64,000 bases of DNA from the NCBI GenBank assembly GCA_964586635.1, contig CAZPGN010000001.1, positions 72,932 to 136,931 of the forward strand. Reading direction: 5' to 3'. The notes beneath the pieces are model-generated. The model was not told where the DNA came from. It saw nothing but the letters and a program-made list of their open reading frames with translations, and did not search any database. This document shows, piece after piece, positions 15,500 through 56,142 of this stretch. Made by a program: the position numbers and the translations under genes. Each line of letters begins with the position of its first letter. The stretch's first letter is position 1. This DNA is from an uncultured Candidatus Saccharibacteria bacterium. Lineage in GTDB: Bacteria; Patescibacteriota; Minisyncoccia; Phycocordibacterales; CAZPGN01.

Positions 15500-15534
15500 G
15501 TCAAACTTCAGATATGCGGATACGTTGTGTCGGG

Positions 15535-15557
15535 TCAAAGGTGTCAGGAACCTTTGA
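15535..15557. repeat. degenerate REP-like hairpin (TCAAAGGTGTCAGGAACCTTTGA) near the right end of the island
   Basis: Stem TCAAAGG/CCTTTGA. The loop TGTCAGGAA resembles the loop GGTCAGGAG of the canonical repeat. Confidence 0.3.
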
Positions 15558-15893
15558 CCAATAATGTTTAGTTCGTAATGCAATCAATAGTATAGCACTT
15601 AAGAAAAAAGAAAGCCTCGCGGATGCGAGGCGATCGATGAATCTCGGCGCATAAAACTGAAACCAAGGAGGTGAAACTAGTCTGCAGCGATTGAAGCGCC
15701 GAGAACTAAATGAACTAATTCGAGATTTTAATGCGAGGGCAATTAGCTTTCGGAAAACTGATTCTCACTGTAAAACTCTGCCCTCGCACTAGTAGTTTAG
15801 CATGGGATATCGAGCAGTCAATTACATTGCAATGTGAACAATAATGCGTAGAATGAAATCGGTACTGAACATTCAACCACGCGAGGAGGATGT

Positions 15894-16229
15894 ATGCAGT
15901 ATGAGAGATGGCTCTTCGTGGTGATTGCGCTCGCAGGGTATGTTCTCACGACGGACCCCGCGCATGGTTTTCAGCCAATTCCGCCTTACAGGACAACGGT
16001 GCAAAGTGCTGCGCCTCCCATGATGCGCGCAATCGCCGAGACCATTCCAGAGCGGTGCCGCTCACCTCGACCCGGGCGCGGTGAGGGCTATTTCATGTTC
16101 ATCCGCGTTGCTCCACATTGTGCGTGCGGACATGAACTCACGCTTCGAAACCCATTCAGGATGCGCCTGAATGTGCACTGCTTCGTTCACAAATTCCCTG
16201 AACCAATGACGGACTGCATTCGCCATTGA
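15894..16229 (+). CDS. hypothetical protein (signal-anchor-like N-terminus)
   Basis: 111-aa ORF preceded by AGGAGGATG. Hydrophobic N-terminus MQYERWLFVVIALAGYVLT. Confidence 0.35.
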   Translation: MQYERWLFVVIALAGYVLTTDPAHGFQPIPPYRTTVQSAAPPMMRAIAETIPERCRSPRPGRGEGYFMFIRVAPHCACGHELTLRNPFRMRLNVHCFVHKFPEPMTDCIRH

Positions 16230-16276
16230 AGATATGCCCCGCCTGCGCTCCACGCACGCGGGGCATCACATTTTTG

Positions 16277-26992: not shown

Positions 26993-27047
26993 AGTTCGAA
27001 GTATACGACTCAATGGTATCAGAAATGTTAGAATATCTGAAATAGTT

Positions 27048-27911
27048 ATGCGAACCATAGAAAAAGAGAATATCCCTACATCACTTCAAGAAATACCAGA
27101 GCCGCCGACGCGGCTGTATATTGAAGGCGAACTTCCGAACGCCGAACATTTCATCTATCTTGCGGTCGTCGGTTCGCGCCGCTATTCGAACTATGGCAGG
27201 GAGGCATGCGAACACTTGATTGCAGGACTTTCCGGCTCGCCCATCGTCATCGTTTCGGGTCTCGCACATGGTATTGACGCTCTCGCGCACCGTGCCGCGC
27301 TTTCAGCGAAATTGCCGACTGTCGCATTCCCCGGTTCTGGCCTCGACCGTCGCTCTCTCTATCCAAGAAGCAACATCGGACTTGCGGACGAAATACTCGC
27401 GGCGGGCGGCGCCTTGGTTTCCGAATTCGAGCCCATGACTCGCGGCGCACTGCATACATTTCCGAGACGCAACCGCCTCATGGCAGGAATCTCTCGCGCT
27501 GTGCTTGTTGTTGAAGCCGGGGAACGCTCTGGAACGCTTATCACTGCGCGGCTCGCGATTGAATACAATCGGGACCTATTCACGGTTCCCGGCTCAATTT
27601 TTTCGGAACACTCCATCGGCGCGCACCGCCTTCTACGCCATGGAGCCGTACCCATAACAACAAGCGCCGATCTTTTGCTTGAGCTCGGCATCGAGAACAA
27701 GCGAAATGCCTCACCATTAGTCGACGGTCTCACCATTAATGAATGCCGGGTTCTCGAAGCGCTCCATGAACCACTCGAACGAGATGCGCTATTGCGAACT
27801 CTTCCTATGCCAATCGCGGAAGCGAATGCCTTACTCATGACAATGGAGATACGTGGTCTCATATCCGAATCTGTAGGTCGCTTCCGCAAAACGAACAACG
27901 CCATACAATGA
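27048..27911 (+). CDS. dprA: DNA processing protein DprA (Smf family)
   Basis: LAVVGSRRYSNYGREACEHLIAGL…IVSGLAHGIDALAHRAAL…GGALVSEF is the DprA Rossmann-like domain. The start is trimmed to MRTIEKEN, downstream of the serS overlap. Confidence 0.8.
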   Translation: MRTIEKENIPTSLQEIPEPPTRLYIEGELPNAEHFIYLAVVGSRRYSNYGREACEHLIAGLSGSPIVIVSGLAHGIDALAHRAALSAKLPTVAFPGSGLDRRSLYPRSNIGLADEILAAGGALVSEFEPMTRGALHTFPRRNRLMAGISRAVLVVEAGERSGTLITARLAIEYNRDLFTVPGSIFSEHSIGAHRLLRHGAVPITTSADLLLELGIENKRNASPLVDGLTINECRVLEALHEPLERDALLRTLPMPIAEANALLMTMEIRGLISESVGRFRKTNNAIQ

Positions 27912-41972: not shown

Positions 41973-42044
41973 GACCACGTGGCGAAGTGGTAACGCAGCG
42001 GTCTGCAAAACCGCAACGCGCGGGTTCGATTCCCGCCGTGGTCT
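41973..42044 (+). tRNA. tRNA-Cys (anticodon GCA)
   Basis: Acceptor GACCACG/CGTGGTC, discriminator U (typical Cys identity element). Anticodon arm GCGGT-CTGCAAA-ACCGC. T arm GCGGG-TTCGATT-CCCGC. Confidence 0.85.
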
Positions 42045-42338
42045 TAAGGCGGGAATCGAAGCCGACCCGAGAAAGCTAAACTGCTTTAGGTTTCTCGGGC
42101 GGCAGGCTCCGAAGGAGACTGTCTCGATGCGCCAAGAGGCGCCAGAGACAGTCGGGTGAGGAGGATTCCCGCCGTGGTCTTAAGGCGGGAATCGAAGCCG
42201 ACCCGAGAAAGCTAAACTGCTTTAGGTTTCTCGGGCGGCAGGCTCCGAAGGAGACTGTCTCGATGCGCCAAGAGGCGCCAGAGACAGTCGGGTGAGGAGG
42301 ATTCCCGCCGTGGTCTTAAGGCGGGAATCGAAGCCGAC
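42045..42338 (+). repeat. tandem direct repeat: 136-nt unit x2 plus a 22-nt third partial copy, beginning right after the tRNA-Cys discriminator; each unit ends with a 17-nt copy of the tRNA-Cys 3-prime end (GATTCCCGCCGTGGTCT)
   Basis: Units 42045..42180 and 42181..42316 are identical by eye; partial copy 42317..42338. Each unit has a 10-bp closing stem (GGCGGGAATC…GATTCCCGCC) and long internal hairpins (GCCGACCCGAGAAA…TTTCTCGGGCGGC; GACTGTCTCGATGCGCC…GGCGCCAGAGACAGTC). Confidence 0.9.
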
Positions 42339-42357
42339 TAGTGATTGTATATATTTT

Positions 42358-42439
42358 GCCCGGGTGGTGTAATTGGTAGCCACGATCGACTTAAGATCGG
42401 TTGCCGTAAGGCATGTGGGTTCGAGTCCCACCCCGGGCA
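42358..42439 (+). tRNA. tRNA-Leu (anticodon TAA), type II
   Basis: Acceptor GCCCGGG/CCCGGGC, anticodon arm ATCGA-CTTAAGA-TCGGT, variable hairpin TGCCGTAAGGCA, T arm GTGGG-TTCGAGT-CCCAC, discriminator A. Confidence 0.8.
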
Positions 42440-42450
42440 TTTTTGATGGG

Positions 42451-42473
42451 ATGAAGGGGTCAGGAGCCTTCAT
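42451..42473 (+). repeat. REP-like hairpin repeat copy (ATGAAGGGGTCAGGAGCCTTCAT) followed by TTTTG; terminator-like, after the tRNA-Leu(TAA)
   Basis: Plus-orientation copy of the 23-mer; …CCTTCATTTTGTC. Confidence 0.8.
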
Positions 42474-42628
42474 TTTGTCTGCCTATCGCGGTTGGAATAA
42501 ATGAAATAATCAGGGCACTTGTCAAGTACCTGAAGTTTGCTGATGAAAAGAAGCAGCCTTTTACGAAATACTTCGGATGCTATGAAAGTTTGAGAGACGA
42601 TGATTCGTGTGTTATTTTGTATTGACAT

Positions 42629-42701
42629 CCCCCTATAGCTCAATTGGTAGAGCAACGGACTCTTAATCCGCAGGTTGTAGGTTCGATTCCTACTGGGGGG
42701 A
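42629..42701 (+). tRNA. tRNA-Lys (anticodon CTT)
   Basis: D arm GCTC-AATTGGTA-GAGC, anticodon arm ACGGA-CTCTTAA-TCCGC (A27/C43 mismatch), T arm GTAGG-TTCGATT-CCTAC. Acceptor CCCCCTA/TGGGGGG with an unusual C1-G72. Discriminator A. Confidence 0.7.
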
Positions 42702-42716
42702 CACTTTATTAGTGGA

Positions 42717-42745
42717 TTGTCAATCTCGTCTGCGACATATATACT
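42717..42745 (+). promoter_or_regulatory. sigma70-like promoter for tRNA-Leu(TAG): -35 TTGTCA, 17-nt spacer, -10 TATACT
   Basis: TTGTCA at 42717..42722, TATACT at 42740..42745. tRNA start is at 42759. Confidence 0.4.
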
Positions 42746-42758
42746 GAAGCAAGTGTGC

Positions 42759-42843
42759 GGGCGAGTGGCGAAATTGGCAGACGCGCCAGCCTTAGGAGCT
42801 GGTGGAGAAATCCGTGGGAGTTCAACTCTCCCCTCGCCCACCA
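42759..42843 (+). tRNA. tRNA-Leu (anticodon TAG), type II, CCA encoded
   Basis: Acceptor GGGCGAG/CTCGCCC, D arm GCG…CGC, anticodon arm CCAGC-CTTAGGA-GCTGG, variable hairpin TGGAGAAATCCG, T arm GGGAG-TTCAACT-CTCCC, discriminator A, CCA. Confidence 0.85.
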
Positions 42844-42867
42844 AACCAAAGTTGGATGACTCATATC

Positions 42868-42905
42868 CAAAAAGCCCCGCCGCCGAAGGGCGCGGGGCTT
42901 TTTGG
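42868..42905. terminator. bidirectional Rho-independent terminator (GC hairpin flanked by an A-run and a T-run) between the tRNA cluster (+) and the giant surface-protein gene (-)
   Basis: CCAAAAAGCCCCGCCGCCGAAGGGCGCGGGGCTTTTTGGTTTTG: stem GCCCCGC(c)GCC / GGC GCGGGGC with loop GAAG. A and T tracts lie on both sides. Confidence 0.7.
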
Positions 42906-42919
42906 TTTTGCACAAGGCT

Positions 42920-45900
42920 CTATTGACCGAGTCTCACCTGCACCTGCTTTTGCAGATTCTCGATAAGTTTCTGGAGATCCTTCACTTGCTTCTCTAGTTC
43001 TGCCTCTGTAGATACGGACGAAGCTGTGGGTGCTCCAAGTTCTCCAAGTTTGGCGCGGGTCATGGGACCCACGAAGCCGTAGCCAGGATCGCTCGGCTTG
43101 GCTAGGTTGTATTTCTCTTGGAACTTACCGATGGCTTTCTGTGTAAGTGTTCCGAGGAACTCCGTCTCGCTGCCGGGTGATCCTGGACCAGTGTTTGCGA
43201 TCTTCGTGTCGGGATCGTTGTTCAAGAGCTGTTGGAGGCGCTTGACATCTTCGCCGCGGGTGCCGATGTCAAGCGAACGGGTGAAGGCCGCAGAGACCGA
43301 TGCCGGAGTTGCTGGTACTGCCGGGGAAACTCCGACAGAGGATACCTCCTGGAGCTTGGCGCGGGTCTTAGGACCGAGAACGCCGAAGCCAGTGGTTTCC
43401 TCGCTACCAGAAGAGATGATGCCGTGCTTCTTCTGGAATTTTTGGAGTGCTAATTTCGTGAGCAGGCCGAAGAAGTCCGTTTCGTTGTCGGGTGACCCCG
43501 GACCAGTATCCGATATTTTCGTATCGGGATCGCTGTTTAGAATCTGCTGGAGGCGCTTGACATCATCGCTTCTTGATCCCGTTTTAAGCACGCGGGTGAA
43601 GACTGGGGAAACCGATATTGCGGTAATGGAAGGGGTTGCAGGAGGGTTCGGTAGGGTTGCCGCAGATACAGATGCGCCCTGCGATGCGGATGCTGGAGCG
43701 GAAATTGCGGGAGTCTTCGACAGAACATGGTCGGAAACAGAACCGCCAAGGTATGACGGCGCCGAACCCCCGCCGCCGCCGCCCCCTCCGCCGCCAAGCA
43801 CATTGACTTTCGCGGAAACGGCACTCGAGGCCGCCGATTCTACAGAACCGCTCTCCTTTGAGGCCGACACTTTGTAGTAGTATGTGGTGCCGTTAGTTAC
43901 CGCTGTATCCGTATAGTTCGTAACATTGCCTGGGACATTCAGAAGCGGGAACGAGCCCGTATCGCTCGTATCGCGATATATGAAGTATCCGGTCGAGTCG
44001 TCAGATGAATTCCACGAGAGTGTAATGGTATTACTGCCCGGATTCCCTGCGGTCGCGGTCAAGTTCGCGGGCGCGGCGGGAGCGTCCGAGTTCGTCGCAG
44101 ACGAGAGCGCATAGAGCGAGAAGTGCGACCCTATCGAAGTAAATGCGACCGTTGAGACATTCGAAAGATTAGATGCCGGAGACGTAATGACATTTCCGCT
44201 CGAATCTTTGTAGGTCAAAACCGTCGAGAGTGATTCCCATTCTTTTTTGTCTTCGCTGTATGATACGACCTTCAATTTGTCTACTTCTGCCGAGGTATCC
44301 ACGTCGGAGAGCGCAAGTTCGGCTTTCGTATAAGTAAGCTCAATACTCGCTTTCTTGCCAGTCTGAAGATTTTTGACTTGAGAACTGCCAGAATATGCGT
44401 TAATGTCCTTCGCCTTTGAGGCCACTATGTTCACACTCACAGTGTTCGGGAAGTTGCTGGTTTCCTTGACGGTAAGATACGAGTTGCTGCCGGCCGAACC
44501 TAGTGTATTGGCATCTAGATCAACCTTGACCTTCGTTGCCGTATCGGAGATGCTTCCAGCGCTCGTGTCGGTAAATGTATTCGAGGTCATGAGGGTACTG
44601 GAAATCGAAGCCGTCGTTGTGAGCGCAACAGTTATAGACGAGGCAGAATTGGCGCCGATGGATATTGGGTTTGCCGCGGCCGCCGCTTCGACATATCCCT
44701 CCGCCGCCGCGAATACGCGCCATGTGCCTTCGCCAACGCTCAAGCGATAGGTGCCGTCAGTATCGGTCTTGGTCACAGCCTGACCGCCGCCGACGCGGAC
44801 AGCGCGCACGAAGGCATTGGCCGACAGAGAACCGCCCGCCGTTACCGTGCCGGAGATCGAGCGGGATGCGCTGGTCAGCACGAAATTTCTAGTGGTATTG
44901 CCTGAAATGGTTATCGAGGTCGGCGTGTCAATATAGCCCGGTTTAGAAACGATAACCTTGTAGGTTCCGTCGACAAGCGAGAGCCGATACGCTCCGGAGG
45001 TAGTCGCTTGCGTACCCGCGAATACGCCATTCGACTCGTTGACGAACGAAATCCATGCATCTGTAAGCTCGTTCCCTGATGTCGCTGCGGTATGATAGAC
45101 GGTGCCGGATACGACACTCAAGTTCGCACTGGCAGTATTAACCACGATTTTTATCGTTTCAGCGCCATTCACTTGCAAAACGCCGGAAAGTACCAGTGTA
45201 TTCGTACCATCATCGCTCGCCACAGAAATGTTCGACGACGGAACACCCTGAATGAAAGCTCGAATCGTAGTTGAGGCGCCATTCGCTATCTGAAGCGATG
45301 TCGAAGACGCGCTCGTTATTTCAACATGGTTCCCAAGCTGTGTACTCGTATCGAAGAGATCAATGAACGCCTTGGGAACTTCGAGCAGATTTCCGTTCGA
45401 GTCTTTTATGTTTATTGTGATAGTCCGCCTTGGCGCAACGCGGATGTTCTGCGTAGTGGAAGCTGTCAAGTCTATCGCGCCGATCGCCGCGCCGCTATTG
45501 CCAAGCGCGGCGATGCGCCCGTAACCTGGCTTGAATATGTCCGCGATCGAATATCCGGAACCAGAACGAACGCGCACCGAATATGCCCCATCGGAGCCAG
45601 AAACGGCCTCATTCGTGCCTGATGACCCGGAAACGCGAATGATGGCTCCCTCTATGCCCTCACCGGCAGTGAACGCGGCGTCGGAATTGCTGTCTTCGTA
45701 GATGTTTCCAGAAAGAATACTGAAGTTAAGCGTGGAGGCGGGTGCAAAATCAATGTTCTCCTGATTCGCCCCCGCGACAGTAACAGTCTGTTCAGTCATT
45801 TGCCCGAATCCTGGAATGAATACATTTACTTTCCATGCGCCGCTGTCAACATAAAGCGTGTATGTTCCGGCCGAAGAATCTGTGAATGAGTCTGCATGAC

Positions 45901-48900
45901 CAGGCCCATCTGTGCGGTAGGCAAACACAGGAGCGTTGCCGACCGCATTCGTGCCGTCCGTTACCCGGCCCGTAATGGTGTATCCAGGTTTTGTCATTTT
46001 AAGCACGAACGGATTTGCGCCGCTTACGCCAGTGGATGCCGAAGTTGAGCCGTCAATGAAGGCATTGCCGGACGAGTCTATGACAACGGAGACCTCACGC
46101 GACTGTCCGACTCCCGGAGCGAACGCACCGACATTGTACGAACCGGAAACAACGCGAATAGAAAATGTGCCATCGATTGCCGTTTGTCCGTGACTACCCA
46201 ACCCAAGGGAGGGCGAGTATGCGTACACGCCCGCATCGGAGACGGTGTTGCCGCTTCCGTCCTTAAGAATGCCTGTTATCGTCTTGTCCGCCACAGAAAT
46301 GGCAAATGTGTATTCTGTAACACGAGACCCGCCAACCGTTGCAATGCATGCAGTCGGACATCCCTTCACTTCGACCTCGATCGGTTTCGGCATTGACCAG
46401 GTGGTGCTAGGCGGCCCAGACATAAAGCCAGTATCGCCCTTCGGCATTGCCGGACCGAAACCGATACCCCAGAACCCGTTCACTTGCGGGAGCGGCATTG
46501 TAGTAACTTTTGTTGCGGAAAGAGCGGCTGTTCCTGGAGTAATCGTGCGCACCACGAATTCACCTGGGCCCCCCGCAAATACATCGAGCTGTTCAGTCGC
46601 TGTGAAAGTATTTAAGGCGGCTGTCATCTTGATATCTATGTTTACAGCAGATGAAGTCGCCGTAAGCGCGAAGTCTCTCGTGATAACGCTTGTCGAGGTT
46701 GCGAGCACCGGCGTCGGGTTGGGTTTGCCGAAGAAACCTGTGGTGGTGCCGGTAGGACTCACTATGGCATTAGTCGACAGCATGTATTCACCACCGCCAC
46801 CAAAGTTGTTCGACAAGAACTCGGTATTGATAGGAATATCGGTAAATTGGTACACGCCGCTCGCGTCAGTTGTACCGATTACTTGACCGATTTGAGGTGA
46901 AAACAGATTTATGTCAACACCTTGGAGGTTCGCGCCATTCCCAGATACTCTCCCACGAATGGTTGTCGTCGCTCCAGAAGAACCTATCCGTCCGTTTATA
47001 TAGATCGGGTTTGCGCTAAAGGTCTCAAGGAGTACTCCAGATGCGTTGCGTGATTTAATGTCTATCGAATAACCAGGGCTGTCGAATCCTTTCGGAATGG
47101 ATGGATTTTTTAGATCTACAACGCCGAACCGTAGGAAATCGTGCGCATCGCCCGATTCGCTGCGCGTCGCGGCATTAAGTGTGAGGGTTACGGTCTTCGC
47201 CGCAGCGTCGCGCGCGATAGCCGCGATGCCAACAGTCCCGGTGCCAGGCCCGTTGATGTCCTTATTTTGCTCATTCAGATATGGGTTGCGGGCTGATGAT
47301 GTCGCCGCACAGCAGATACCGAAATCTGCCGCGGAGGGGAAGGTGAGGACTATGGTGCCGTTTGCGGGTATTTGCCTTGAGATTGGAAGCTCGAAGATAT
47401 AGGTAGTCGAGGCGGAAACGAAATTGGACAAAGTTTGAATGTTCACCGGAGGAACGAAACCGATGCCGGAAGCGGAGAAATCTTTGTGCTCACCGAAGAC
47501 GCTTCCAGAAAAGGTGCCAGGCCCAAGAAGACCGCCACCCGAAGAAGAAAAGCCTGCGACAGTTCCAGTAAAGGTGCCCTCGGTCGTCATCGCATTACCG
47601 CTCATATCCTTGATATTGTTCGCGGTAACTGTGAAGGAAGTGCCGGCTGGAAGCTTTACGCCAGAGATTTGCGCAGTGCGCGTAGTCGAGTCATAGGTGA
47701 CAGAGTGCCCTGCCAGCGCGGAAAGCGTAATGCCTGAACCCGCAGTAACAGAGTAATTCGCAAGCGTCTTCGCATCACCCGAATTGACAGCCTCATTAAA
47801 GGAAATCGCTATGGAGAAATCGTTCGCGTTGGCAAAGAGAATTGAGGGCGGCTGTGTATCGGAATTCGTAGCTTCGACCGTCCAGTCCCGCGTTACCGTC
47901 CCCGCAAGAGGCGTCCCTGAAGTGTTCTTCAGTCCTCCCGCGCCTCCGACGAGCGTCAAACGCAACTGGGAGTTCGAAGGAAGCACATTGTTCGGAACAA
48001 AGTGGCCCTCTTGCGTAACGGGATTGTAATAGACAGTCCCTGGAATATTGGCGCCGCCAACGATGCTCATACTTACCGAGCCGGAGGTTGCCGTTGTCGG
48101 ATCTATTGTGTCATCAAAGACGAAGAGAAAATCATTCATGTTCGCCGCAATTGGTGCGCTTGCACTCGGTAGAACGGATTGCAGAATCGGCGCCGACGAA
48201 TCGGTAGAGCCCGAGGTCGTGAATTTCGAGATATATGCCGTTTGTGCGGCGACGCCGTTTGTATTCCGTACGCCGACCCCGACAGTGAGCGTATAAGTGC
48301 GATTCGCTCCGAGGGATGCAGGCATCATCGTAAGAAGATTCTTGCCGGTCGAAGTGCTCATAACGAAATTGGATAGTACCACCGCCGCGCCAAGGTCATT
48401 CACGAGCGTGATATTCGCGTTCGTGAGCGTGCTGACATTCATATTTGCCTGACTGAATTCTACTGACAACACGGAGAGATTCGTCGGCACATTCTGCGCA
48501 CTGTTGAATGGACTGGCGCCAAGCACCTGCGGGGGCACGAGATTCGTGGAGGTCTGGGTACTTCCGCCGGTCGTAAAGGTGATGGAATACGGCTGGCTTC
48601 CTGCCGTGAATCGGTTCTGGTCGAGTGGATTGCCGGAGATGTCGCGGATGGTGCTAGTGGCAATAAATGCGTAAATCGTACTGGGCGCAAGATTTGCAGA
48701 AAGGATGCATTTTGCCGATGGCTCAAATGCGCTCGGAAACGGATTATACTGTACGCTCCCGCAGAGGTTCGGGTTGGTCAGACTGCTTGCGTTGCGGAGA
48801 GTGACTGTCGTTGTTGCGGTGGCAGAGATAATAGTTCCGGTCGCGATCGTTTTGTTGAAATTGAACCCGATGTACTGCATATCGATTGGTACATTCGTGT

Positions 48901-50128
48901 TCTGGTCGGACGGGAACGACGCCGAAACCATCGGACTTTCGATGTCGAGAAAGCCGCCGCCGAAGGAGAACTCTTTTGGACTCATGCTGTTTTGCGGATA
49001 GACGCCGGCACTCGTTTGCAGAACAAAGTCGGCGCTATTGTCGCCAGTGTCGCCGCTATTGCCGCGAGTGCTTTCAAAACCTCCTTGACTCATAGAGGCG
49101 GCCGAGGCAGTCGAGGTAGATTTGCGCTCGTAACTATTGTCTACGGCGAGATCGGCGAGACGGGTACCTTCTGCGTTCCCCGCCGGCTGTGCCCCCCATG
49201 CGACTCGGTCAATAGATGTCGTCGTCGCGGACGATGTGGCAATACCAAGCGCGCCGTTTGCAATAAGCGTATTGCCGGATAGCGTCGAATACGCGGCGTC
49301 AAGAGCTGTTCCGGAAGAGGTGTAGTTGGTTTGTGAGCCTATAAGGAAAAAGCCATGCTTAGGTATTACGGTGCGGTAGTAGGTAAGAGTTTTCGAGCTC
49401 GCGATTCCGTCCGCATCATAGAGATGAGGGACCAATCCAGAACCCTGCAGATTAAACGCAAACTCGGAAGGGTTGTACAGCTCAAAGAATTCATCGCCCG
49501 CATTACCAGTCGCCCCGAGTCGAAACTCGCTTATCTTAATAGGCACGGTTTGCTCGAGAAGGATAGCGCGACTGCCAGTGAACTGCGTACCAATGGAACC
49601 TCCCGAAGTTGTAATCCAATTTGGCGATGTGGTTGCGTAAAATTGGTGGCCGTTCGTGAGACCAGCCGTAGATGTCGCGAGCGCGACTACAAAAAATTCC
49701 GTGGAGATAGACCCGACCGCGCCGTTGCCCGTGTCGACCGTAATAGTCTGCTCGGTGCTTGTTGCGGGGTCTATGACCATGTTGGCCGCGGTATTAAGAA
49801 GCGTGTCGGAATCGGGTTGGAAACCGAGATTCGCACCGGATTCTCTATAAAGCTGAAGTTTCCAGATCTCGCCATTCGTCAGTTTTGCGACATTCATCTG
49901 CGGAGTCGAAGTCGCCCGAATGGAAACTTTGACATTGGTGAGCGTGGCGCTTCCCGACGATTGAAGAAGACGAAACTGCAAGAGCGGTATGTACGCGCCG
50001 CCTCCAGCTCGCTGATTTTCAAAAAGAACATCGATGGGCGGAGCATTTTCGATAATGGCCGCTCTGGCAACACCCGGCACTGTAGATGCGACTGCGAATA
50101 AGACAAGAGCGATTGCTCGTAACCTCAT
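42920..50128 (-). CDS. giant secreted cell-surface protein (2402 aa): signal peptide, long array of beta-sandwich (Ig-like / CarboxypepD_reg-like) repeats, poly-Gly linker, two C-terminal peptidoglycan-binding (PG_binding_1-like) domains and a terminal coiled coil
   Basis: N-terminus MRLRAIALVLFAVASTVPGVARA. Recurrent SGTVT…G…TDGTYRL-type repeats. A GGGGGGGGGG run. Two copies of LKTGSRSDDVKRLQQ(I/L)LN.DPDTKI…TGPGSP…TDF(F/L)G.LT..A(L/I).KFQ.K. The C-terminus is EKQVKDLQKLIENLQKQVQ. Confidence 0.85.
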   Translation of the reverse strand: MRLRAIALVLFAVASTVPGVARAAIIENAPPIDVLFENQRAGGGAYIPLLQFRLLQSSGSATLTNVKVSIRATSTPQMNVAKLTNGEIWKLQLYRESGANLGFQPDSDTLLNTAANMVIDPATSTEQTITVDTGNGAVGSISTEFFVVALATSTAGLTNGHQFYATTSPNWITTSGGSIGTQFTGSRAILLEQTVPIKISEFRLGATGNAGDEFFELYNPSEFAFNLQGSGLVPHLYDADGIASSKTLTYYRTVIPKHGFFLIGSQTNYTSSGTALDAAYSTLSGNTLIANGALGIATSSATTTSIDRVAWGAQPAGNAEGTRLADLAVDNSYERKSTSTASAASMSQGGFESTRGNSGDTGDNSADFVLQTSAGVYPQNSMSPKEFSFGGGFLDIESPMVSASFPSDQNTNVPIDMQYIGFNFNKTIATGTIISATATTTVTLRNASSLTNPNLCGSVQYNPFPSAFEPSAKCILSANLAPSTIYAFIATSTIRDISGNPLDQNRFTAGSQPYSITFTTGGSTQTSTNLVPPQVLGASPFNSAQNVPTNLSVLSVEFSQANMNVSTLTNANITLVNDLGAAVVLSNFVMSTSTGKNLLTMMPASLGANRTYTLTVGVGVRNTNGVAAQTAYISKFTTSGSTDSSAPILQSVLPSASAPIAANMNDFLFVFDDTIDPTTATSGSVSMSIVGGANIPGTVYYNPVTQEGHFVPNNVLPSNSQLRLTLVGGAGGLKNTSGTPLAGTVTRDWTVEATNSDTQPPSILFANANDFSIAISFNEAVNSGDAKTLANYSVTAGSGITLSALAGHSVTYDSTTRTAQISGVKLPAGTSFTVTANNIKDMSGNAMTTEGTFTGTVAGFSSSGGGLLGPGTFSGSVFGEHKDFSASGIGFVPPVNIQTLSNFVSASTTYIFELPISRQIPANGTIVLTFPSAADFGICCAATSSARNPYLNEQNKDINGPGTGTVGIAAIARDAAAKTVTLTLNAATRSESGDAHDFLRFGVVDLKNPSIPKGFDSPGYSIDIKSRNASGVLLETFSANPIYINGRIGSSGATTTIRGRVSGNGANLQGVDINLFSPQIGQVIGTTDASGVYQFTDIPINTEFLSNNFGGGGEYMLSTNAIVSPTGTTTGFFGKPNPTPVLATSTSVITRDFALTATSSAVNIDIKMTAALNTFTATEQLDVFAGGPGEFVVRTITPGTAALSATKVTTMPLPQVNGFWGIGFGPAMPKGDTGFMSGPPSTTWSMPKPIEVEVKGCPTACIATVGGSRVTEYTFAISVADKTITGILKDGSGNTVSDAGVYAYSPSLGLGSHGQTAIDGTFSIRVVSGSYNVGAFAPGVGQSREVSVVIDSSGNAFIDGSTSASTGVSGANPFVLKMTKPGYTITGRVTDGTNAVGNAPVFAYRTDGPGHADSFTDSSAGTYTLYVDSGAWKVNVFIPGFGQMTEQTVTVAGANQENIDFAPASTLNFSILSGNIYEDSNSDAAFTAGEGIEGAIIRVSGSSGTNEAVSGSDGAYSVRVRSGSGYSIADIFKPGYGRIAALGNSGAAIGAIDLTASTTQNIRVAPRRTITINIKDSNGNLLEVPKAFIDLFDTSTQLGNHVEITSASSTSLQIANGASTTIRAFIQGVPSSNISVASDDGTNTLVLSGVLQVNGAETIKIVVNTASANLSVVSGTVYHTAATSGNELTDAWISFVNESNGVFAGTQATTSGAYRLSLVDGTYKVIVSKPGYIDTPTSITISGNTTRNFVLTSASRSISGTVTAGGSLSANAFVRAVRVGGGQAVTKTDTDGTYRLSVGEGTWRVFAAAEGYVEAAAAANPISIGANSASSITVALTTTASISSTLMTSNTFTDTSAGSISDTATKVKVDLDANTLGSAGSNSYLTVKETSNFPNTVSVNIVASKAKDINAYSGSSQVKNLQTGKKASIELTYTKAELALSDVDTSAEVDKLKVVSYSEDKKEWESLSTVLTYKDSSGNVITSPASNLSNVSTVAFTSIGSHFSLYALSSATNSDAPAAPANLTATAGNPGSNTITLSWNSSDDSTGYFIYRDTSDTGSFPLLNVPGNVTNYTDTAVTNGTTYYYKVSASKESGSVESAASSAVSAKVNVLGGGGGGGGGGSAPSYLGGSVSDHVLSKTPAISAPASASQGASVSAATLPNPPATPSITAISVSPVFTRVLKTGSRSDDVKRLQQILNSDPDTKISDTGPGSPDNETDFFGLLTKLALQKFQKKHGIISSGSEETTGFGVLGPKTRAKLQEVSSVGVSPAVPATPASVSAAFTRSLDIGTRGEDVKRLQQLLNNDPDTKIANTGPGSPGSETEFLGTLTQKAIGKFQEKYNLAKPSDPGYGFVGPMTRAKLGELGAPTASSVSTEAELEKQVKDLQKLIENLQKQVQVRLGQ

Positions 50129-50324: not shown

Positions 50325-50900
50325 TCAGTTTAGAACAATTTTTATTCTTGCGACTCCAGTCCATAACTTGGGCAAGAGTCGCGTTCTCACCTCCTTTATG
50401 AAATTCCCATAATCATCTGGGTCGGGTTCGTATTTTTCCGACCCCTTATTGATTTGGGTAAGCTCTCCGCAGAGAGCGTCGTCAAGGTCGAGCATTCCCG
50501 ACTCAAACTGGTGAGGGTCGAGAATGTATCTTCCCTTCTCCTCGGTCGGCAGAAGTACGCCGACCGAGAATGTTCCCCTCCAGGCCCTCTCGCCGAAATG
50601 GTCCACGGCTCGTGAAAGACGAGCCTTGAACCCGACAGTCCTGTGCGGCGGCAGAGTGTCCTCTATGATGAGGACACTCTGCCGACGCCATACTCGAACT
50701 GGGATCTCCCCCGTTGGGGCGTCCTCCTCCGAGGGGGAGCCGTGATACCACTGCCCGCGGAGGAAGCCTCGACGCGACCACGACGCAACCGACGATTGTT
50801 CGTCGACTGCTCCGAGAAATAGATGCAGACAGAGTGTCATGGAGAACAGCACCCCCGCTCCTGTCAAGACCTTCTTCCAGACTCCTCTGAACTGCATCAC
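50325..50900 (-). CDS. hypothetical secreted/membrane-anchored protein (191 aa)
   Basis: N-terminal hydrophobic segment VLTGAGVLFSMTLCLHLFLGAV. Last gene of the operon before the terminator. No family recognised. Confidence 0.4.
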   Translation of the reverse strand: MMQFRGVWKKVLTGAGVLFSMTLCLHLFLGAVDEQSSVASWSRRGFLRGQWYHGSPSEEDAPTGEIPVRVWRRQSVLIIEDTLPPHRTVGFKARLSRAVDHFGERAWRGTFSVGVLLPTEEKGRYILDPHQFESGMLDLDDALCGELTQINKGSEKYEPDPDDYGNFIKEVRTRLLPKLWTGVARIKIVLN

Positions 50901-51976
50901 TTACTCCTTTTGTTGAGAATCTTCCCAAGAAGTTCGGCAATCGGCCCGGCATTTTCGATCGAGAATGCCGTGCGCGAAGTGTTCTTATCTCGCGAAGCCA
51001 TGACCATGTTCGCGGCCGTGGCTTTGTCGACTCCTGTCTCCAGCATTATGCGCCGTATATTGCGCGTCATGCTCTCGACATCAACATCTTGAGCCTCGGC
51101 GATCGCCCTCGCCTGACCCTGCTGTTCGAGAGCTTTCTTCGTATCCGTGGTGAAGTCAAAATCCTTCACCAGGACATCAAGGATACCGATACCTAGGCGC
51201 TCCTCGATGTCTGAATGGAGTTTATCCCTCCAATACATGAAGTGCCTCAACAGGTCGCAGTAGTATACTGCGTAGAACTCGTAGAGACCGAGTTTCTGCT
51301 GGCAATGTGCATCCCAAGCCGAAATTATTGCGAGACGATTATCATTCATCACGCCGCCAACTGCTTCTTCTGGGTAATACCCCAGAGACAAACGGCAGGC
51401 GAGACGGAGCGCCACCACTTTTGTTGACTTGAGCGCCTCCTCGACGCTCATTGTCGAGAGCATCTCGAATGCGCAAGCCTTCGCGTGGCGCTCTAGCCAA
51501 TCGACGTGCTCGTTTGTCTTTACGAGAAAATACCGACCGACATCGGTTATCTCGTAATTTATTACGACATCGGCTACGACATCTAGACGATTTCCGGCAT
51601 CCATTACTATTTCAACAGGTATTTTTTCCGTTCTTGCCCGAACATCTATTGGGCCACTGTTCCCAGATATAATCTCGTGGAAAGGCGTGGGTAGAACATT
51701 GAGTCCTGCTGTGAGCACAAATCCGGCGACAGGTTTTCCGAAGAGAAAAACCTGCGCTCCGTGGTATTCAGGCACGAACTTTATACATGCCAGACACCAC
51801 GACACGAGAAATGCCGCCAGCGTGAGAACGAAAGCGAACCATGCCACGCTTGTCCATTGTATTGGATGTATTGGACTTACAATGAACTGAATGCTCACCC
51901 TCGCCACGAACAAAGAGACGCACACCAGAACTATGGAGTAGAAACTACTCCATCGACTCCAATTCAGATTTTTCAC
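50897..51976 (-). CDS. SPFH/band 7 (stomatin/prohibitin-like) domain membrane protein
   Basis: N-terminal TM helices, then FLFGKPVAGFVLTAGLNVLPTPFHEI…IDVRARTEKIPVEIVMDAGNRLDVVADVVINYEITDVGRYF. This matches the SPFH pattern of stomatins (…PGLNFI.PF.D…D.P.Q…T.DN..V.VD.V.Y..V.D). Coiled-coil C-terminus. Confidence 0.5.
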   Translation of the reverse strand: MKNLNWSRWSSFYSIVLVCVSLFVARVSIQFIVSPIHPIQWTSVAWFAFVLTLAAFLVSWCLACIKFVPEYHGAQVFLFGKPVAGFVLTAGLNVLPTPFHEIISGNSGPIDVRARTEKIPVEIVMDAGNRLDVVADVVINYEITDVGRYFLVKTNEHVDWLERHAKACAFEMLSTMSVEEALKSTKVVALRLACRLSLGYYPEEAVGGVMNDNRLAIISAWDAHCQQKLGLYEFYAVYYCDLLRHFMYWRDKLHSDIEERLGIGILDVLVKDFDFTTDTKKALEQQGQARAIAEAQDVDVESMTRNIRRIMLETGVDKATAANMVMASRDKNTSRTAFSIENAGPIAELLGKILNKRSK

Positions 51977-52142
51977 GAAGAAACCCTCTCTTTAGTCAGT
52001 AGATTTCAAAGGTCAATTTGATGTGCTTTATATCATAATATGATTGTGTCGTCAACTAGCTAGGTGTGGTATTAGTCCAACAACGAAACAGCCCGCGAAA
52101 ACCTTTGGTTTTCGCGGGCTGATCGATTCCGAATTCGGCACA

Positions 52143-52400
52143 TCAGAAACTACGCACTGTCGATATAATGAGATTCACAATGCCAAATGCAGAAACCATG
52201 ATCGCCATGCCGAGAACTCCCCATACCATGTGCTGTTTCCCCTTTGTCAATCTACTTTCATCTCCCGCGGCGCTTACAAACTCAAACACTCCCCAAAGGA
52301 AGAATATGAGGGCTAGGCCAAACAAGAGACGGATCAGCGGATTAATAATCGCGTCATTAATCTTGCCGATTACAGGAAGGGCTTGAGCAGAGCGATACAT
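52143..52400 (-). CDS. small 2-TM pilin-like protein (paralog 5; lacks the N-terminal signal region)
   Basis: Shares the family core I.P..xLA.I.F.WG…A.GD…WGV…S..G.VN with the four upstream paralogs. Architecture resembles TrbC/VirB2-type pilins. Confidence 0.4.
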   Translation of the reverse strand: MYRSAQALPVIGKINDAIINPLIRLLFGLALIFFLWGVFEFVSAAGDESRLTKGKQHMVWGVLGMAIMVSAFGIVNLIISTVRSF

Positions 52401-52417
52401 ACCATGTGTATATATGC

Positions 52418-52891
52418 TTAACGAAAGATACCTCCTATTTGCTCAAGGATATTGCCGATATTCCCGCCTGTGCCGCCCGCACCCTGGCCAGGAGCGGCCT
52501 GAACTCCGGGAGATTGCACTGCTGGGCCTTGGAATACACCTCCTCCCGCCGTAACGCCAAACGATCTGCCGACAAGCAATACAAGGCTGTAAACTGATAC
52601 GAGCACAAAGAGGGCAACGAGGCCCCAGGTCATTATCTCGCGCCCTTCAGCTCTATTGCTAGAGTCTTTTGCCGAGCTAATGTACTCAACGAGCCCCCAC
52701 ATGAAGTAAATCACCGCGATCGTAATAACGATAGGGATGATTATATTGAGGATGCTCTGCACCTGCACAAGTATCGTCTGAACAGTGCTCTGATCACGAG
52801 TCGCAGTTTGGGCAAAAACAAGCACGGGAGCAAAATACATGCCAATTGCCGCCAAAACGCGCGCATATACGCTGGTAATATAATTATGCAT
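52418..52891 (-). CDS. small secreted 2-TM pilin-like protein (paralog 4) with Gly/Gln-rich C-terminal tail
   Basis: Signal-like N-terminus, core IIIPIVITIAVIYFMWGLVEYISSAKDSSNRAEGREIMTWGLVALFVLVSVYSLV, then a low-complexity GGGVFQGPAVQSPGVQAAPGQGAGGTGG tail. The start is trimmed to MHNYIT. Confidence 0.45.
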   Translation of the reverse strand: MHNYITSVYARVLAAIGMYFAPVLVFAQTATRDQSTVQTILVQVQSILNIIIPIVITIAVIYFMWGLVEYISSAKDSSNRAEGREIMTWGLVALFVLVSVYSLVLLVGRSFGVTAGGGVFQGPAVQSPGVQAAPGQGAGGTGGNIGNILEQIGGIFR

Positions 52892-53002
52892 AATTATATG
52901 TTGTTGACTGTGGTATGTTACTTTTTTCGACCAAAAATATAACTGGCGACATACCGCGCCATCCCGTGCGCGCCGCTTCGGCATGCACGGGATGGCGCGC
53001 TA

Positions 53003-53467
53003 CTAGAAGCCAAAAAGTCCTCGCAGGGCTTCGCCAAAAAGCTGTTGGGATGATCTGATGGGCGAAGTCTGGCTTCCTCTAGAACTGGGTTGAGTAGCGG
53101 AGAAGCTACCCGATGAACTCCCGGCAAATCGCAGTTGCGGCACATTAGGCTGGGTATTCTCAAGATCGAGTGTCCGAGCAACAACATTAACGAGACCATA
53201 GACCGATGTCATTACAAAAAGCGCTATCACTCCCCAAATCATTATTTGTCTCCCCTCCTGCTTCGCATCTCCCGCGCCCTTTATGTATTGGGCAACTCCC
53301 CACATGAAATATATAAGCGCGAGCGCGATAATGACCGGAATGATACCGTTCAGCATCGAAAGCACTTTATCAATAAGTGTCCCGAGCGTCTGACCTTGCG
53401 CAAATGCGGTCCCAGACGGCAAAAGCGCGACAGATAGAAAAGCTATGACTTTATCTATTTTTTTCAT
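53003..53467 (-). CDS. small secreted 2-TM pilin-like protein (paralog 3) with Ser-rich C-terminal tail
   Basis: Signal peptide MKKIDKVIAFLSVALLPSGTAFAQG. Core GIIPVIIALALIYFMWGVAQYIKGAGDAKQEGRQIMIWGVIALFVMTSVYGLVNVV. Confidence 0.5.
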   Translation of the reverse strand: MKKIDKVIAFLSVALLPSGTAFAQGQTLGTLIDKVLSMLNGIIPVIIALALIYFMWGVAQYIKGAGDAKQEGRQIMIWGVIALFVMTSVYGLVNVVARTLDLENTQPNVPQLRFAGSSSGSFSATQPSSRGSQTSPIRSSQQLFGEALRGLFGF

Positions 53468-53468
53468 A

Positions 53469-53882
53469 TCAATTTAGGAGTCCTATTGTACTTTGAACGA
53501 CCCCAGCAATAATGTCAGCTCCGACTAAGATACCGATTCCGATGACCGTCCACAGAAGCGTCGCCTTCGCAGTCTCAAGCTGTTTCTCGTCGCCGCGTGC
53601 TGTGACAAAAAGGAACCCCGCGTACACAATAAAGAGAATGGCGACGGGAATAGCAAGCTGAACGAGCGCGTCAAGTATTTTTGCAATTAGCTGGTTGAGT
53701 GTGCTTACCTCCCCAAGCGGATTCGTGAGACCACCTCTTGTACCGCCAGAACTTGGTTGGAACACGCCCGTTCCTTGCGCTCTTGCGACACTCACCGAGA
53801 CAAGGTGAGCGCCTAGCACAAGCATAGCGCATATCGTGCGCGCCCCGTATCTCATTTTCTTAATTGTGTGGATAAATCGCAT
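53469..53882 (-). CDS. small secreted 2-TM pilin-like protein (paralog 2)
   Basis: Signal peptide, then LAIPVAILFIVYAGFLFVTARGDEKQLETAKATLLWTVIGIGILVGADIIAGVV. Same architecture as the neighbours. Confidence 0.5.
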   Translation of the reverse strand: MRFIHTIKKMRYGARTICAMLVLGAHLVSVSVARAQGTGVFQPSSGGTRGGLTNPLGEVSTLNQLIAKILDALVQLAIPVAILFIVYAGFLFVTARGDEKQLETAKATLLWTVIGIGILVGADIIAGVVQSTIGLLN

Positions 53883-53883
53883 A

Positions 53884-54285
53884 TTAGATTTCTACGCTAC
53901 CGCCAGTAAGGGCAAATAGGATAAACCGCACGATAATGTATGCCGCGGCCGCAAGCGCGATGCCGATCACCGTGTTCTTCATTATGTCTTTTGCGTCGCT
54001 TCGCTGACTTTCGTTCCCCGCAGAAGTTATAAAGAGAACTCCAGCGACACCAAACGAAAGCGTTCCGACCACTACGGCGAATGTCACAAAGAATTGCAAC
54101 ACGCGATCTGCAAGGCCTCCCTTTCTGATAAGGTCGTTGAAGGTACAGTTGTACACGCACGGCACTATTGGCTGTTCGCTCTGTGCATACGCGACTGGCG
54201 CGAGCGCCGCGGTTCCTCCGAGAACGGAAAGAACGGCAAACGTGACGAGACACAATATAGCTATTTTTTGTCCGGCTGTGCGCAT
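53884..54285 (-). CDS. small secreted 2-TM pilin-like protein (paralog 1)
   Basis: Signal peptide MRTAGQKIAILCLVTFAVLSVLGGTAALAPVAYAQ. Two hydrophobic helices separated by a short polar loop (TSAGNESQRSDAKD), as in TrbC/VirB2 pilins. Confidence 0.5.
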   Translation of the reverse strand: MRTAGQKIAILCLVTFAVLSVLGGTAALAPVAYAQSEQPIVPCVYNCTFNDLIRKGGLADRVLQFFVTFAVVVGTLSFGVAGVLFITSAGNESQRSDAKDIMKNTVIGIALAAAAYIIVRFILFALTGGSVEI

Positions 54286-54288: not shown

Positions 54289-55602
54289 TTAAAATGGTGT
54301 TTGAAATAATTGCCCGAGCTGTTCCCTGGCGCGATTTATCGCTTCTAGCTCCCGAAGCCTGCCGCCGACTACGGCATCTATCATACCCGCGAACACCTGC
54401 CGCGAAGCAATCGGGAATGGATCGAGCCACCCTCTCGCGATGAGCCCTGAACGGCTGACCACATCAAGGAATGGGTCGGTGTTGCCTTGCGCAAGGGCAT
54501 CGCGGCGTGCAGATGCCAAGCGGAGGCCGTTTGCGGCAAGTTGCGAATTATTGCCCGATGCAAGCGCGCTGATAATTGAAAAAGCGGCGGCCGGGTTTTG
54601 CGACGCCCTGGTGAGCGCCAGTGCATAGACAGCGCCAAGTGTCGTTGTGCGCCTCTCTCGAATTTGCGGAACAATTGCGGCATCAAAATTGAGGTGCGGA
54701 TTGATCGCTCGAATAAGGGACTCGGAGCTCGCATAATCGAGATACAGCGCGACCTGATTTCCGGCAAATGCTTCCATCGCAGAGGCAAATCCTCGATTCC
54801 AGGTATAGAGACGGCTGTCAATGTTGCTGAACTGGGTATAGAACCGGAGTGCCGCATCTGCAGGAAGCAAAGGACTATCGTCAGGAGACAAACCAAATGC
54901 GAGATGCACGAGCTTGGTGGCAGTTCTTGCGACAATTTGATCCCCCGATTGCACTAGCAGAAGCGCGAGAATATCTGGAGCATTGGGAATGTTGAACGCA
55001 TCACCAAGCGCGATCGCGCTCTGGGTTATGATACCGCGATCGCCGCGCTTGGTAAGGCGGGGCGTATTCGCAACAACTTCCTCCCAGTGTTGGGGCGCCT
55101 TGGCAATGCCTGCGCTTGCAAACATATCTCGATTCCAATAGAGCACAACGGGGTCTATTAACCAGGGCAAACCGAGTACTCCCTCTGGCGCAAGAAACAG
55201 TTCTCCAGCCTCCGCAAATGTGTCTCGGAACGACCGCTCCGGCAAATTTTCATATGGAATAGGGACGATCTTATCTGCATGCCTTATAATGAGCGAATTT
55301 GGAAGAATGACGATATCGGGCCCGCGGCCGCTCGCGAGCGCGGCGACAAGCTCTTGGTCGAAGGTTATTGGATTTCGCTCGGAATAGCTAACGCGGAGAC
55401 CTCGGAACGCGCGCGCCGCCTCGGCCACAGCTTCTCCAACTCCCGCCTCGGGCAATGTCCCCCAAATGACCACGGAGCCAGAAAGTTCGGAAGAACCCCC
55501 ATTGCCGCCAAGCGAAGTCGCTGAAAACAAAACGAGTGCCACGACAGAGAGGAACATAAACACCCCAAGGACAACGAGCTGGAATGTAGTTAGATTCTTC
55601 AT
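54289..55602 (-). CDS. membrane-anchored extracellular solute-binding-protein-like protein (ABC SBP family 1-like)
   Basis: N-terminal TM, then GSVVIWGTLPEAGVGEAVAEAARAF…GPDIVILPNS. This resembles the SBP_bac_1 N-lobe (…TLTVW…F…PDVV). No permease or ATPase genes are adjacent. Confidence 0.45.
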   Translation of the reverse strand: MKNLTTFQLVVLGVFMFLSVVALVLFSATSLGGNGGSSELSGSVVIWGTLPEAGVGEAVAEAARAFRGLRVSYSERNPITFDQELVAALASGRGPDIVILPNSLIIRHADKIVPIPYENLPERSFRDTFAEAGELFLAPEGVLGLPWLIDPVVLYWNRDMFASAGIAKAPQHWEEVVANTPRLTKRGDRGIITQSAIALGDAFNIPNAPDILALLLVQSGDQIVARTATKLVHLAFGLSPDDSPLLPADAALRFYTQFSNIDSRLYTWNRGFASAMEAFAGNQVALYLDYASSESLIRAINPHLNFDAAIVPQIRERRTTTLGAVYALALTRASQNPAAAFSIISALASGNNSQLAANGLRLASARRDALAQGNTDPFLDVVSRSGLIARGWLDPFPIASRQVFAGMIDAVVGGRLRELEAINRAREQLGQLFQTPF

Positions 55603-55611: not shown

Positions 55612-56142
55612 TTACTGTTTCTTGAAAAAAACGCCCCAATGGTGCTCTCCCGCATCGAATGCGCGCTCATCAGAAAATCCCGCATCTATAAACATCCTCG
55701 CCGCTTTCTCTCGACTAACAATGTTCTCGGGGCGCGGCCCTAAACCGCCAAAAGAATCGCTCCAGTCAATGACTGCCGCGCTCCCGCCTGACCGCAGTAC
55801 GCGGTATGTTTCGCGCGCGACCGCCGCGCCGTCTTCTGCCTGGAAGAGAATATTTGATACGAGAACGAAGTCCATCGATCCATCGCCAAGACCCGAACCG
55901 TGCGGCGTGTCGAGGTCGCCCGGCAGAACTTCTATCGTTGTTAACCGCTCGGCCTTGGCCTCTGAGTATAAGCGCGACAGCAAGTCTTTCTGGACATCGA
56001 CGGCATACACGCGACCAGTATCTCCAACTCGCTTTGCCATCTCGAGCGCATACGCGCCGCTTCCCGCGCCGAGATCGGCGACCTTCATGCCTTCACGGAG
56101 TCCAAACCTGGCAACATTTCGTACTGGGTCGGCAAACGCCAT
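55612..56142 (-). CDS. class I SAM-dependent methyltransferase
   Basis: VADLGAGSGAYALEMA is motif I. RVYAVDV is the acidic post-I motif. MDFVLVSNIL is motif II. Confidence 0.65.
   Translation of the reverse strand: MAFADPVRNVARFGLREGMKVADLGAGSGAYALEMAKRVGDTGRVYAVDVQKDLLSRLYSEAKAERLTTIEVLPGDLDTPHGSGLGDGSMDFVLVSNILFQAEDGAAVARETYRVLRSGGSAAVIDWSDSFGGLGPRPENIVSREKAARMFIDAGFSDERAFDAGEHHWGVFFKKQ

Follow-up and report, generated by a model that had tools for sequence, protein, structure and literature searches.

We analysed a 64,000-nt window of contig CAZPGN010000001.1 (assembly GCA_964586635.1, positions 72,932 to 136,931), which comes from an uncultured Candidatus Saccharibacteria bacterium. The window contains five consecutive, intact and tightly packed open reading frames (ORFs) on the minus strand at 52143-54285. 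An initial annotation had described these as five tandem genes of one architecture resembling pilins of type IV secretion systems (T4SSs), and the ORF listing of the window places them exactly where it had put them. The genes are numbered here in the order in which they are read on their strand:

P1, 53884-54285, minus strand: 133 aa; predicted signal peptide ending AYA↓QS, two Cys in the N-terminal region and two hydrophobic helices; pilin-like "first-position" type (PF18895, 32.4 bits; hydropathy).
P2, 53469-53882, minus strand: 137-aa ORF; predicted signal peptide ending ARA↓QG; the most TrbC/VirB2-like copy (PF18895, 46.4 bits; PF04956, 31.6 bits).
P3, 53003-53467, minus strand: 154 aa; predicted signal peptide ending AFA↓QG, IYFMWG motif and Ser/Gln-rich C-terminal tail; "penultimate-position" type (PF18895, 26.4 bits).
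P4, 52418-52891, minus strand: 157 aa from the ATG at 52891 (longest ORF 52418-52984, 188 aa); predicted signal peptide ending VFA↓QT, IYFMWG motif and Gly/Gln-rich tail (PF18895, 33.9 bits; gene callers).
P5, 52143-52400, minus strand: 85 aa; two helices and no signal peptide; conserved "last-position" type (PF18895, 30.0 bits).

Architecture of the five proteins

Signal peptides and helices of P1-P5 were predicted from a hydropathy scan. We observed a signal-like N-terminal segment in P1 to P4, ending in AYA↓Q, ARA↓Q, AFA↓Q and VFA↓Q respectively, and none in P5, as the initial annotation had proposed for the last copy. In all five proteins, a short charged loop (A/S-A-G/K-D/N-E...K/R) connects two hydrophobic helices. 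The helix motifs I.P..LA.IYF.WG and WGV.ALFV, which had been ascribed to the entire set, are common to P3, P4 and P5; they do not extend to P1 and P2, the more divergent and more TrbC-like pair. The C-terminal tails are variable and of low complexity, and the Ser-, Gly- and Gln-rich tails described earlier are present in P3 (Ser/Gln) and P4 (Gly/Gln).

The lengths first reported, 85-188 aa, hold for the longest ORFs. The true start of P4 is most likely the inner ATG at 52891, which is the choice of the gene callers and yields a 157-aa protein with the signal peptide end MHNYITSVYARVLAAIGMYFAPVLVFA↓Q. For P2, the NCBI record HYS59_01935 places the start at Met10 (53855; 128 aa), which is probably the true one. 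Intergenic gaps are 1 nt (P1-P2), 1 nt (P2-P3) and 17 nt (P4-P5), and the exception to this tight packing is the 111-nt spacer between P3 and the likely start of P4. BLASTP comparison among the five proteins gave significant matches for nine of the ten pairs (E 1e-6 to 7e-27, 16-39% identity; P3 versus P4, 37%). P1 and P3 had no significant direct match and are joined through the other copies.

Family assignment

We compared P1-P5 with hidden Markov models (HMMs) of pilin families. All five matched PF18895 (T4SS_pilin), with P1, P2, P4 and P5 above its curated gathering cut-off (26.6 bits) and P3 0.2 bits short of it. P2 also passed the cut-off of PF04956 (TrbC/VirB2; 27.9 bits), P3 scored 16.8 bits, and P1, P4 and P5 had no match at E <= 1. 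All five fell below the cut-off (40 bits) of NF045849, the NCBIfam model of pilin-like proteins from Mycoplasma integrative and conjugative elements (ICEs), at 19.0-29.5 bits (E 4e-7 to 8e-4); they are thus related to that family without being members of it. This fits the published kinship of patescibacterial T4SSs with monoderm conjugation systems.

The signal, first helix, loop and second helix that had been likened to VirB2/TrbC are seen by hydropathy and in an AlphaFold2 model of P2, which consists of a signal helix and a helical hairpin (57-94 / 99-136, pLDDT ~84). A Foldseek search with the predicted hairpin ranked the Agrobacterium T-pilus subunit third, a weak match (E = 3.8), and the hairpin aligned weakly and not significantly to 8exh and 8s6h. 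A sequence search of the PDB with a profile of 37 family members returned chance matches to membrane helices only. Based on the PF18895 and PF04956 scores and the signal-helix-loop-helix layout, we consider membership of the five proteins in the VirB2/TrbC-superfamily pilin-like family firm as an assignment from HMMs and architecture, not fold; "pilin" is used here as a homology-based name. The family is very large: the same profile, run against 1.84 billion proteins, retrieved 52,234 representative clusters at E <= 1e-3.

Three other assignments were rejected. Type IV pilins (PilA-like) have a class III signal (G↓F/M-xxx-E) and a single helix; P1-P4 carry type I AxA↓Q sites and two helices, and there was no type IV pilin family match. 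A holin or bacteriocin-like peptide was suggested by one weak NCBIfam match of P1 (E 0.005), and a TctB-like transporter subunit by a match at E 0.02.

We also observed family members with fused architectures. Polyproteins of 2-8 tandem two-helix modules occur in P0034, P0043, P0053, P0151, P0003 and at L020:12215-13354. Those with a complete N-terminus have one signal peptide followed by the modules (P0053, 552 aa, six modules; P0151, 820 aa, eight modules), and no internal signal peptides were seen in the family polyproteins. Fused hairpins of this kind are not known from classical VirB2 pilins, which poses the question of how the chains would be assembled. At L026:2527-3486, a 319-aa protein joins a pilin-like N-terminal module to a large Cys-rich C-terminal domain.

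Intactness and recurrence of the array

The same array is intact in three Logan assemblies and in one NCBI metagenome-assembled genome (MAG), with exact identity for P2 and matching gene lengths for the rest. P2 is identical to the hypothetical protein HYS59_01935 of the Candidatus Vogelbacteria MAG GCA_016177055.1. The host chromosome is assigned to Candidatus Vogelbacteria (Paceibacteria), and its population occurs in samples SRR12113383, SRR12113384 and SRR12113431. Orthologous arrays were found in 26 other related loci. For the related loci, orthologues of the solute-binding protein (SBP) encoded upstream of P1 were taken from 21 species-representative GTDB genomes (32-40% identity), which are labelled Paceibacterota, Kaiserbacteria, Adlerbacteria or generic Patescibacteria/Saccharibacteria.

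We checked whether the ORFs could be chance frames without function or decaying pseudogenes, the latter being a possibility that the initial annotation had raised. The composition of the proteins, which are small, hydrophobic and of low complexity, would fit such an origin, as would the NCBI annotation, which lists the array proteins as hypothetical only. Against this stand the intact ORFs, the presence of the same array in four independent assemblies, the conserved motifs of the orthologous arrays in the 26 related loci, Pfam scores over the curated cut-offs, and the essentiality of homologues in Southlakia epibionticum. Conservation excludes this explanation, whose probability we regard as vanishingly small.

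Positional conservation of the array copies

We compared each copy with the genes of the related arrays. The best match of P1 was the first array gene in 15 of the 20 loci with a match, and that of P2 was the first or second. P3 and P4 both matched best to the penultimate gene of most other arrays. For P5, it was the gene at the end of the array in 20 of 22 loci (33-50% identity); most loci gave a cross-genome identity above that between P5 and any paralogue of its own genome. The orthologues of P5 are mostly short, with a signal peptide that is absent or vestigial. Copy number ranges from 3 to 10 among related genomes and changes mainly in the middle of the array; the locus L025:7141-11947 carries an expanded array of ten copies.

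These sequence comparisons suggest that the copies are old, distinct and positionally conserved, and not recent duplicates. Positional orthology implies that they are ancient and predate these lineages, and it favours specialised roles over variant cassettes. The five copies are therefore probably specialised subunits (major and accessory), not interchangeable variants.

Interchangeable variants of one pilin, serving antigenic or host-range variation, have been proposed for the VirB2 proteins of Bartonella and Anaplasma and suggested for Patescibacteria (PMC12102498). The low identity between copies, their differing numbers between related genomes and their variable, low-complexity tails would suit such cassettes. 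Like the array described here, the VirB2 clusters of Bartonella and Anaplasma phagocytophilum comprise several tandem divergent copies in a host-associated bacterium (cited in PMC12102498). The role ascribed to those copies is antigenic variation in the face of an animal immune system, whereas the window copies are positionally conserved across genera and their presumed host is another microbe. The match of P1, P2, P3/P4 and P5 to the same array position in most other genomes, and the closer kinship of P5 to its counterparts than to its own paralogues, weaken the variant-cassette explanation. In addition, relatives have a putative separate promoter for the last two genes (see below), which points to a division of labour. 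Overall, we consider variant cassettes quite unlikely at this locus.

Conserved upstream neighbours

Two genes on the same strand precede the array:

55612-56142, minus strand: S-adenosylmethionine-dependent methyltransferase, 176 aa (Methyltransf_11/25, UbiE-like; Pfam); its stop lies 9 nt before the SBP start.
54289-55602, minus strand: orphan SBP, 437 aa (SBP_bac_1/SBP_bac_8; Pfam, 54.4 bits), anchored in the membrane at its N-terminus; the gene stops 3 nt ahead of the P1 start.

The methyltransferase may be the first gene of an operon. No ATP-binding cassette (ABC) permease or ATPase gene adjoins the SBP gene, and its distant PDB relatives are sugar-SBP/MalE proteins (E 1e-5). The pilin array, with 3-10 genes each, follows directly after the SBP stop in 20 of 20 GTDB loci with downstream DNA, and the gap is <= 15 nt or an overlap in 19 of these. 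The same arrangement was seen in six further contexts, giving 26 of 26 judgeable related loci; a seventh, L034, is cut at a contig edge upstream of the array and stands outside the count. A tblastn comparison placed the methyltransferase gene immediately before that of the SBP in 23 of 24 loci with that region present (the exception is L028), and it is annotated there in L030, L031 and L033.

The order methyltransferase-SBP-array beside gyrA is kept in nearly every related locus examined. Synteny extends over the whole stretch pth - rpsA - metallo-hydrolase - gyrA - methyltransferase - SBP upstream of the array, and the genes downstream of it vary. This gene order suggests that the array has been vertically inherited and is fixed beside gyrA in the clade. 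Because the whole neighbourhood is conserved as well, the linkage of SBP and array may reflect inherited gene order rather than function. The array of S. epibionticum has no SBP beside it, so the SBP link is clade-specific. The main text of a 2025 survey of patescibacterial VirB2 arrays (PMC12102498) mentions neither gyrA nor a solute-binding gene near arrays. The present comparison contributes the clade-wide putative SBP-array operon, the ordered paralogues and the putative DnaA-box-like internal promoter, none of which is mentioned in that main text. In one related locus (L033:3627-7265), the GyrA gene beside the array carries an intein (1212 aa, Intein_splicing domain).

Regulatory signals in and after the array

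Three candidate signals were located on the minus strand:

52089-52121, minus strand: strong intrinsic terminator, 15-bp stem with 10 G-C pairs and a T-rich tail, at the predicted end of the operon.
52955-52999, minus strand: very stable stem-loop in the P3-P4 spacer, immediately downstream of the P3 stop; its arms, 52955-52969 and 52985-52999, form a perfect 15-nt inverted repeat.
53867-53875, minus strand: TTATCCACA, which matches the DnaA-box consensus perfectly; it lies at the P1-P2 junction, 8 nt past the P1 stop, and is the only exact copy in the window.

A strong hairpin also follows the last gene in most related arrays. The P3-P4 spacer folds with -53 kcal/mol (z = -7.3), and the stem-loop in it is followed by a weaker hairpin and a T-rich run, with a terminator-like site at 52961-52944. 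We infer that the stem-loop may be an attenuator or a transcript-stabilising element between P1-P3 and P4-P5. A dispersed mobile repeat was rejected as its identity: the hairpin sequence matched only its own arms and, as one near-match without an inverted partner, the argS coding sequence. A sigma-70-like site before P4 (GTAACA-17-TATAAT) was likewise set aside as probably due to chance; it abuts the start codon, and 7 such sites were found versus 4.1 expected.

In most relatives, a spacer of 70-220 nt lies ahead of the penultimate-type gene, with TATCCACA a few bases past the preceding stop. This sequence is the core of the DnaA box TTATCCACA. A DnaA-box-like motif was found in the array spacers of L009, L012, L014-L019, L021, L025, L026, L029, L031 and L034, as a one-base variant in L012 and L031. 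Sites of TATCCACA are concentrated in these spacers (33 in 436 kb overall, 11 in ~2.9 kb of such spacers; P ~1e-19), and four loci fetched later had one exact copy, one one-base variant and two looser look-alikes judged by eye. Shortly downstream of TATCCACA, the relatives carry a -35 element TTGnnn and a -10 element TAnnAT, also judged by eye. From its sequence, this spacer looks like an internal promoter for the last two array genes.

The layout in the window differs from that in the relatives: TTATCCACA lies at the P1-P2 junction, and the P3-P4 spacer holds the stable hairpin instead. The role of TTATCCACA at this junction is uncertain. With <= 1 mismatch allowed, the motif was not enriched across the window (14 found versus 10.9 expected).

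Comparison with known pilin systems

We compared the array with published arrays and pilins. Quinonero-Coronel et al. (2025) screened 3,035 genomes of Patescibacteria using the PF18895, PF04956 and CONJScan profiles and reported 441 VirB2 arrays of 2-11 genes in 383 Patescibacteria assemblies, with a mean identity of 25% (PMC12102498). They define a VirB2 array as two to eleven VirB2-like genes of low identity, in tandem or with one non-pilin gene between them (PMC12102498). P1-P5, five adjacent genes of 16-39% identity, fall within this definition. Of the 1,948 assemblies with both, only 1,135 had VirB2-like genes close to virB4, and in about 40% they lay away from it (PMC12102498). The array is thus a further instance of an already published kind, and pilins away from the machine are common in Patescibacteria, not an oddity.

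In S. epibionticum, a series of predicted pilins lies inside an essential T4SS cluster (Wang et al. 2023; PMC10633639). The six genes SEML1_0014-0019 all match PF18895 and are all essential by transposon sequencing (PMC10633639). As in the window, the genes of S. epibionticum ML1 (Saccharimonadia) and the 441 catalogued arrays encode tandem proteins of 100-190 aa that all match PF18895 and in some cases PF04956; divergent copies (~25% identity), a monoderm host, the lack of a relaxase nearby and, as predicted for the host of the window, a chromosomal T4SS are further likenesses. The S. epibionticum array sits within the T4SS cluster and adjoins a VirB6-like gene, whereas the window array is detached from any machine gene and follows a methyltransferase and an orphan SBP beside gyrA.

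P1-P4 share a long signal peptide, and all copies share two hydrophobic helices and a short charged loop, with the VirB2/TrbC pilins of PF04956 (Agrobacterium T-pilus VirB2, RP4 TrbC and R388 TrwL). In Gram-negative bacteria, these pilins are usually encoded by a single gene in the virB/trb operon of a diderm system, in contrast to the five-gene array of the window. The structural matches of the window proteins to these pilins are not significant. The Mycoplasma ICE proteins Mbov_0395/MMCAP2_0565 (NF045849) are likewise small two-helix proteins, in monoderm MPF-FATA-type conjugation. They are encoded by a single gene on a mobile element, whereas the window proteins form an array and score below the cut-off of that family.

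Proposed role of the array

We scanned the ORFs of the window and of related loci for T4SS machine families with Pfam. For the window, the initial annotation had described pilin-like subunits without a local secretion machine, with no T4SS ATPase, VirB6 or relaxase gene; the scan agrees with this. The T4SS machine of Paceibacteria usually lies near dnaA.

We consider it probable that P1-P5 are VirB2/TrbC-superfamily pilin-like proteins that form a pool for a VirB4-type T4SS encoded elsewhere in the genome and help to build a surface structure for a host-dependent lifestyle. P1-P5 would be transcribed with the upstream SBP gene, and possibly the methyltransferase gene, as one unit ending at the terminator at 52089-52121, and the structured P3-P4 spacer would modulate the last two genes. 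P1-P4 would be inserted by the Sec pathway and cleaved by signal peptidase I at AxA↓Q, and P5 would be inserted without cleavage. The mature proteins are predicted to be helical hairpins in the membrane, whose two ends lie on the outer side and whose charged loop lies on the inner side. A VirB4-powered T4SS of the monoderm type (MPF-FATA-like) would then draw on this membrane pool to form a surface filament or channel, which would serve life with a host. A 2025 review treats Patescibacteria as the one case of VirB2-like pilins in monoderm T4SSs and considers a pilus possible, though still hypothetical (PMC12857230).

Several observations weigh against this proposal. The families VirB4/AAA_10, TrbL/VirB6, PrgI/VirB3, VirD4 and relaxase were not detected in the ORFs scanned across the window, and no VirB8 Pfam family was present there. 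T4SS machine families were absent from the 25 most frequent Pfam families of 61 flanking ORFs (±10 kb, 18 related GTDB loci; single-ORF families fall outside that list), and none were seen in the Pfam-annotated contexts of further related loci. The constant partner of the array is an SBP, which is not a T4SS component, and the family includes polyproteins of 2-8 fused hairpins, which classical VirB2 pili are not known to have. Finally, no T4SS pilus has been observed in any Patescibacterium (PMC12857230).

Some of these observations would suit a different device, in which the hairpin proteins form a membrane-embedded ring or channel that acts with the co-transcribed SBP in uptake or sensing, independently of a T4SS and with no external pilus. 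An orphan SBP without ABC permease or ATPase precedes the array in every judgeable locus, and no T4SS genes were seen in the window or, among the most frequent families, in the 10 kb on either side of the array in relatives. Conservation extends to the P5-type copies, which lack a signal peptide; the natural polyproteins, with 2-8 hairpins after one signal peptide, recall fused ring-forming subunits; and the structure-based annotation of one S. epibionticum homologue is an "ATP synthase subunit c"-like fold. What counts against a ring is the HMM kinship with TrbC/VirB2 and ICE pilin-like proteins, together with the S. epibionticum array, which lies in a T4SS cluster by a VirB6-like gene and lacks an SBP. 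The SBP linkage is also confined to one clade in which the whole pth-S1-gyrA-methyltransferase neighbourhood is conserved, and may be inherited order. We therefore regard an SBP-linked ring or channel as unlikely.

A more speculative possibility, to which we assign a low probability, is that the methyltransferase, the orphan SBP and the ordered hairpin set would together form a self-contained envelope module. The SBP would then be dedicated to the filament or ring and could sit at its tip or base as a receptor that captures host-derived molecules, and expression would be tied to the replication cycle through the DnaA-box-like operator. If this is true, patescibacterial T4SS pilins and nutrient uptake would for the first time be linked in concrete genetic terms.

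Patescibacteria account for much of the bacterial diversity that is still uncultured, and they rely on host cells. In the only species tested, the T4SS is essential, and so is its pilin array. The locus brings no new kind of element. It indicates that, within one large clade, the array occupies a fixed chromosomal position apart from the machine, with a constant SBP partner, ordered old paralogues and what looks like an internal regulatory signal of its own. It also offers leads as to which copy is the main subunit, when the genes are expressed and whether the system serves uptake.

Other features of the window

The remainder of the window is ordinary housekeeping chromosome. It includes pentose-phosphate and glycogen-type genes, argS, serS, topA, relA/spoT, parB, miaA, clpB, infB, gyrA, rpsA, pth, lepB and dprA, along with eight tRNA genes.

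Three minus-strand genes lie downstream of the array. An SPFH/Band 7 membrane protein is encoded at 50897-51976, and its gene overlaps that of a 191-aa protein of unknown family (50325-50900). Band_7 genes were also seen near the array in L007 and L034 and among four flanking ORFs scanned from GTDB loci. The third gene (42920-50128) starts ~2 kb downstream of the array end. Its product, a secreted giant protein of 2402 aa that is probably an adhesin or envelope protein, contains lamin-tail, Big_5 and CarboxypepD_reg repeats and carries a peptidoglycan-binding domain at its C-terminus. A tblastn search of the related loci found no counterpart, which suggests that it is lineage-specific.

A low-GC island at ~11990-16230 (GC 0.36-0.39 versus ~0.50) contains genes for a tyrosine integrase (11991-12833, minus strand) and a MazG-like pyrophosphohydrolase (12926-13261, plus strand), as well as several ORFs without a family match. 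The island is probably an integrated mobile element; no tRNA gene was found at its borders. Four tRNA genes (Cys, Leu-taa, Lys and Leu-tag) are clustered at 41973-42843, and a 147-aa ORF that overlaps two of them (42470-42913) is probably not a gene. The DNA-processing protein A gene, dprA, lies at 26871-27911 on the plus strand and is overlapped by a 192-aa minus-strand ORF without a family match, which is probably spurious. The presence of dprA is consistent with natural competence.

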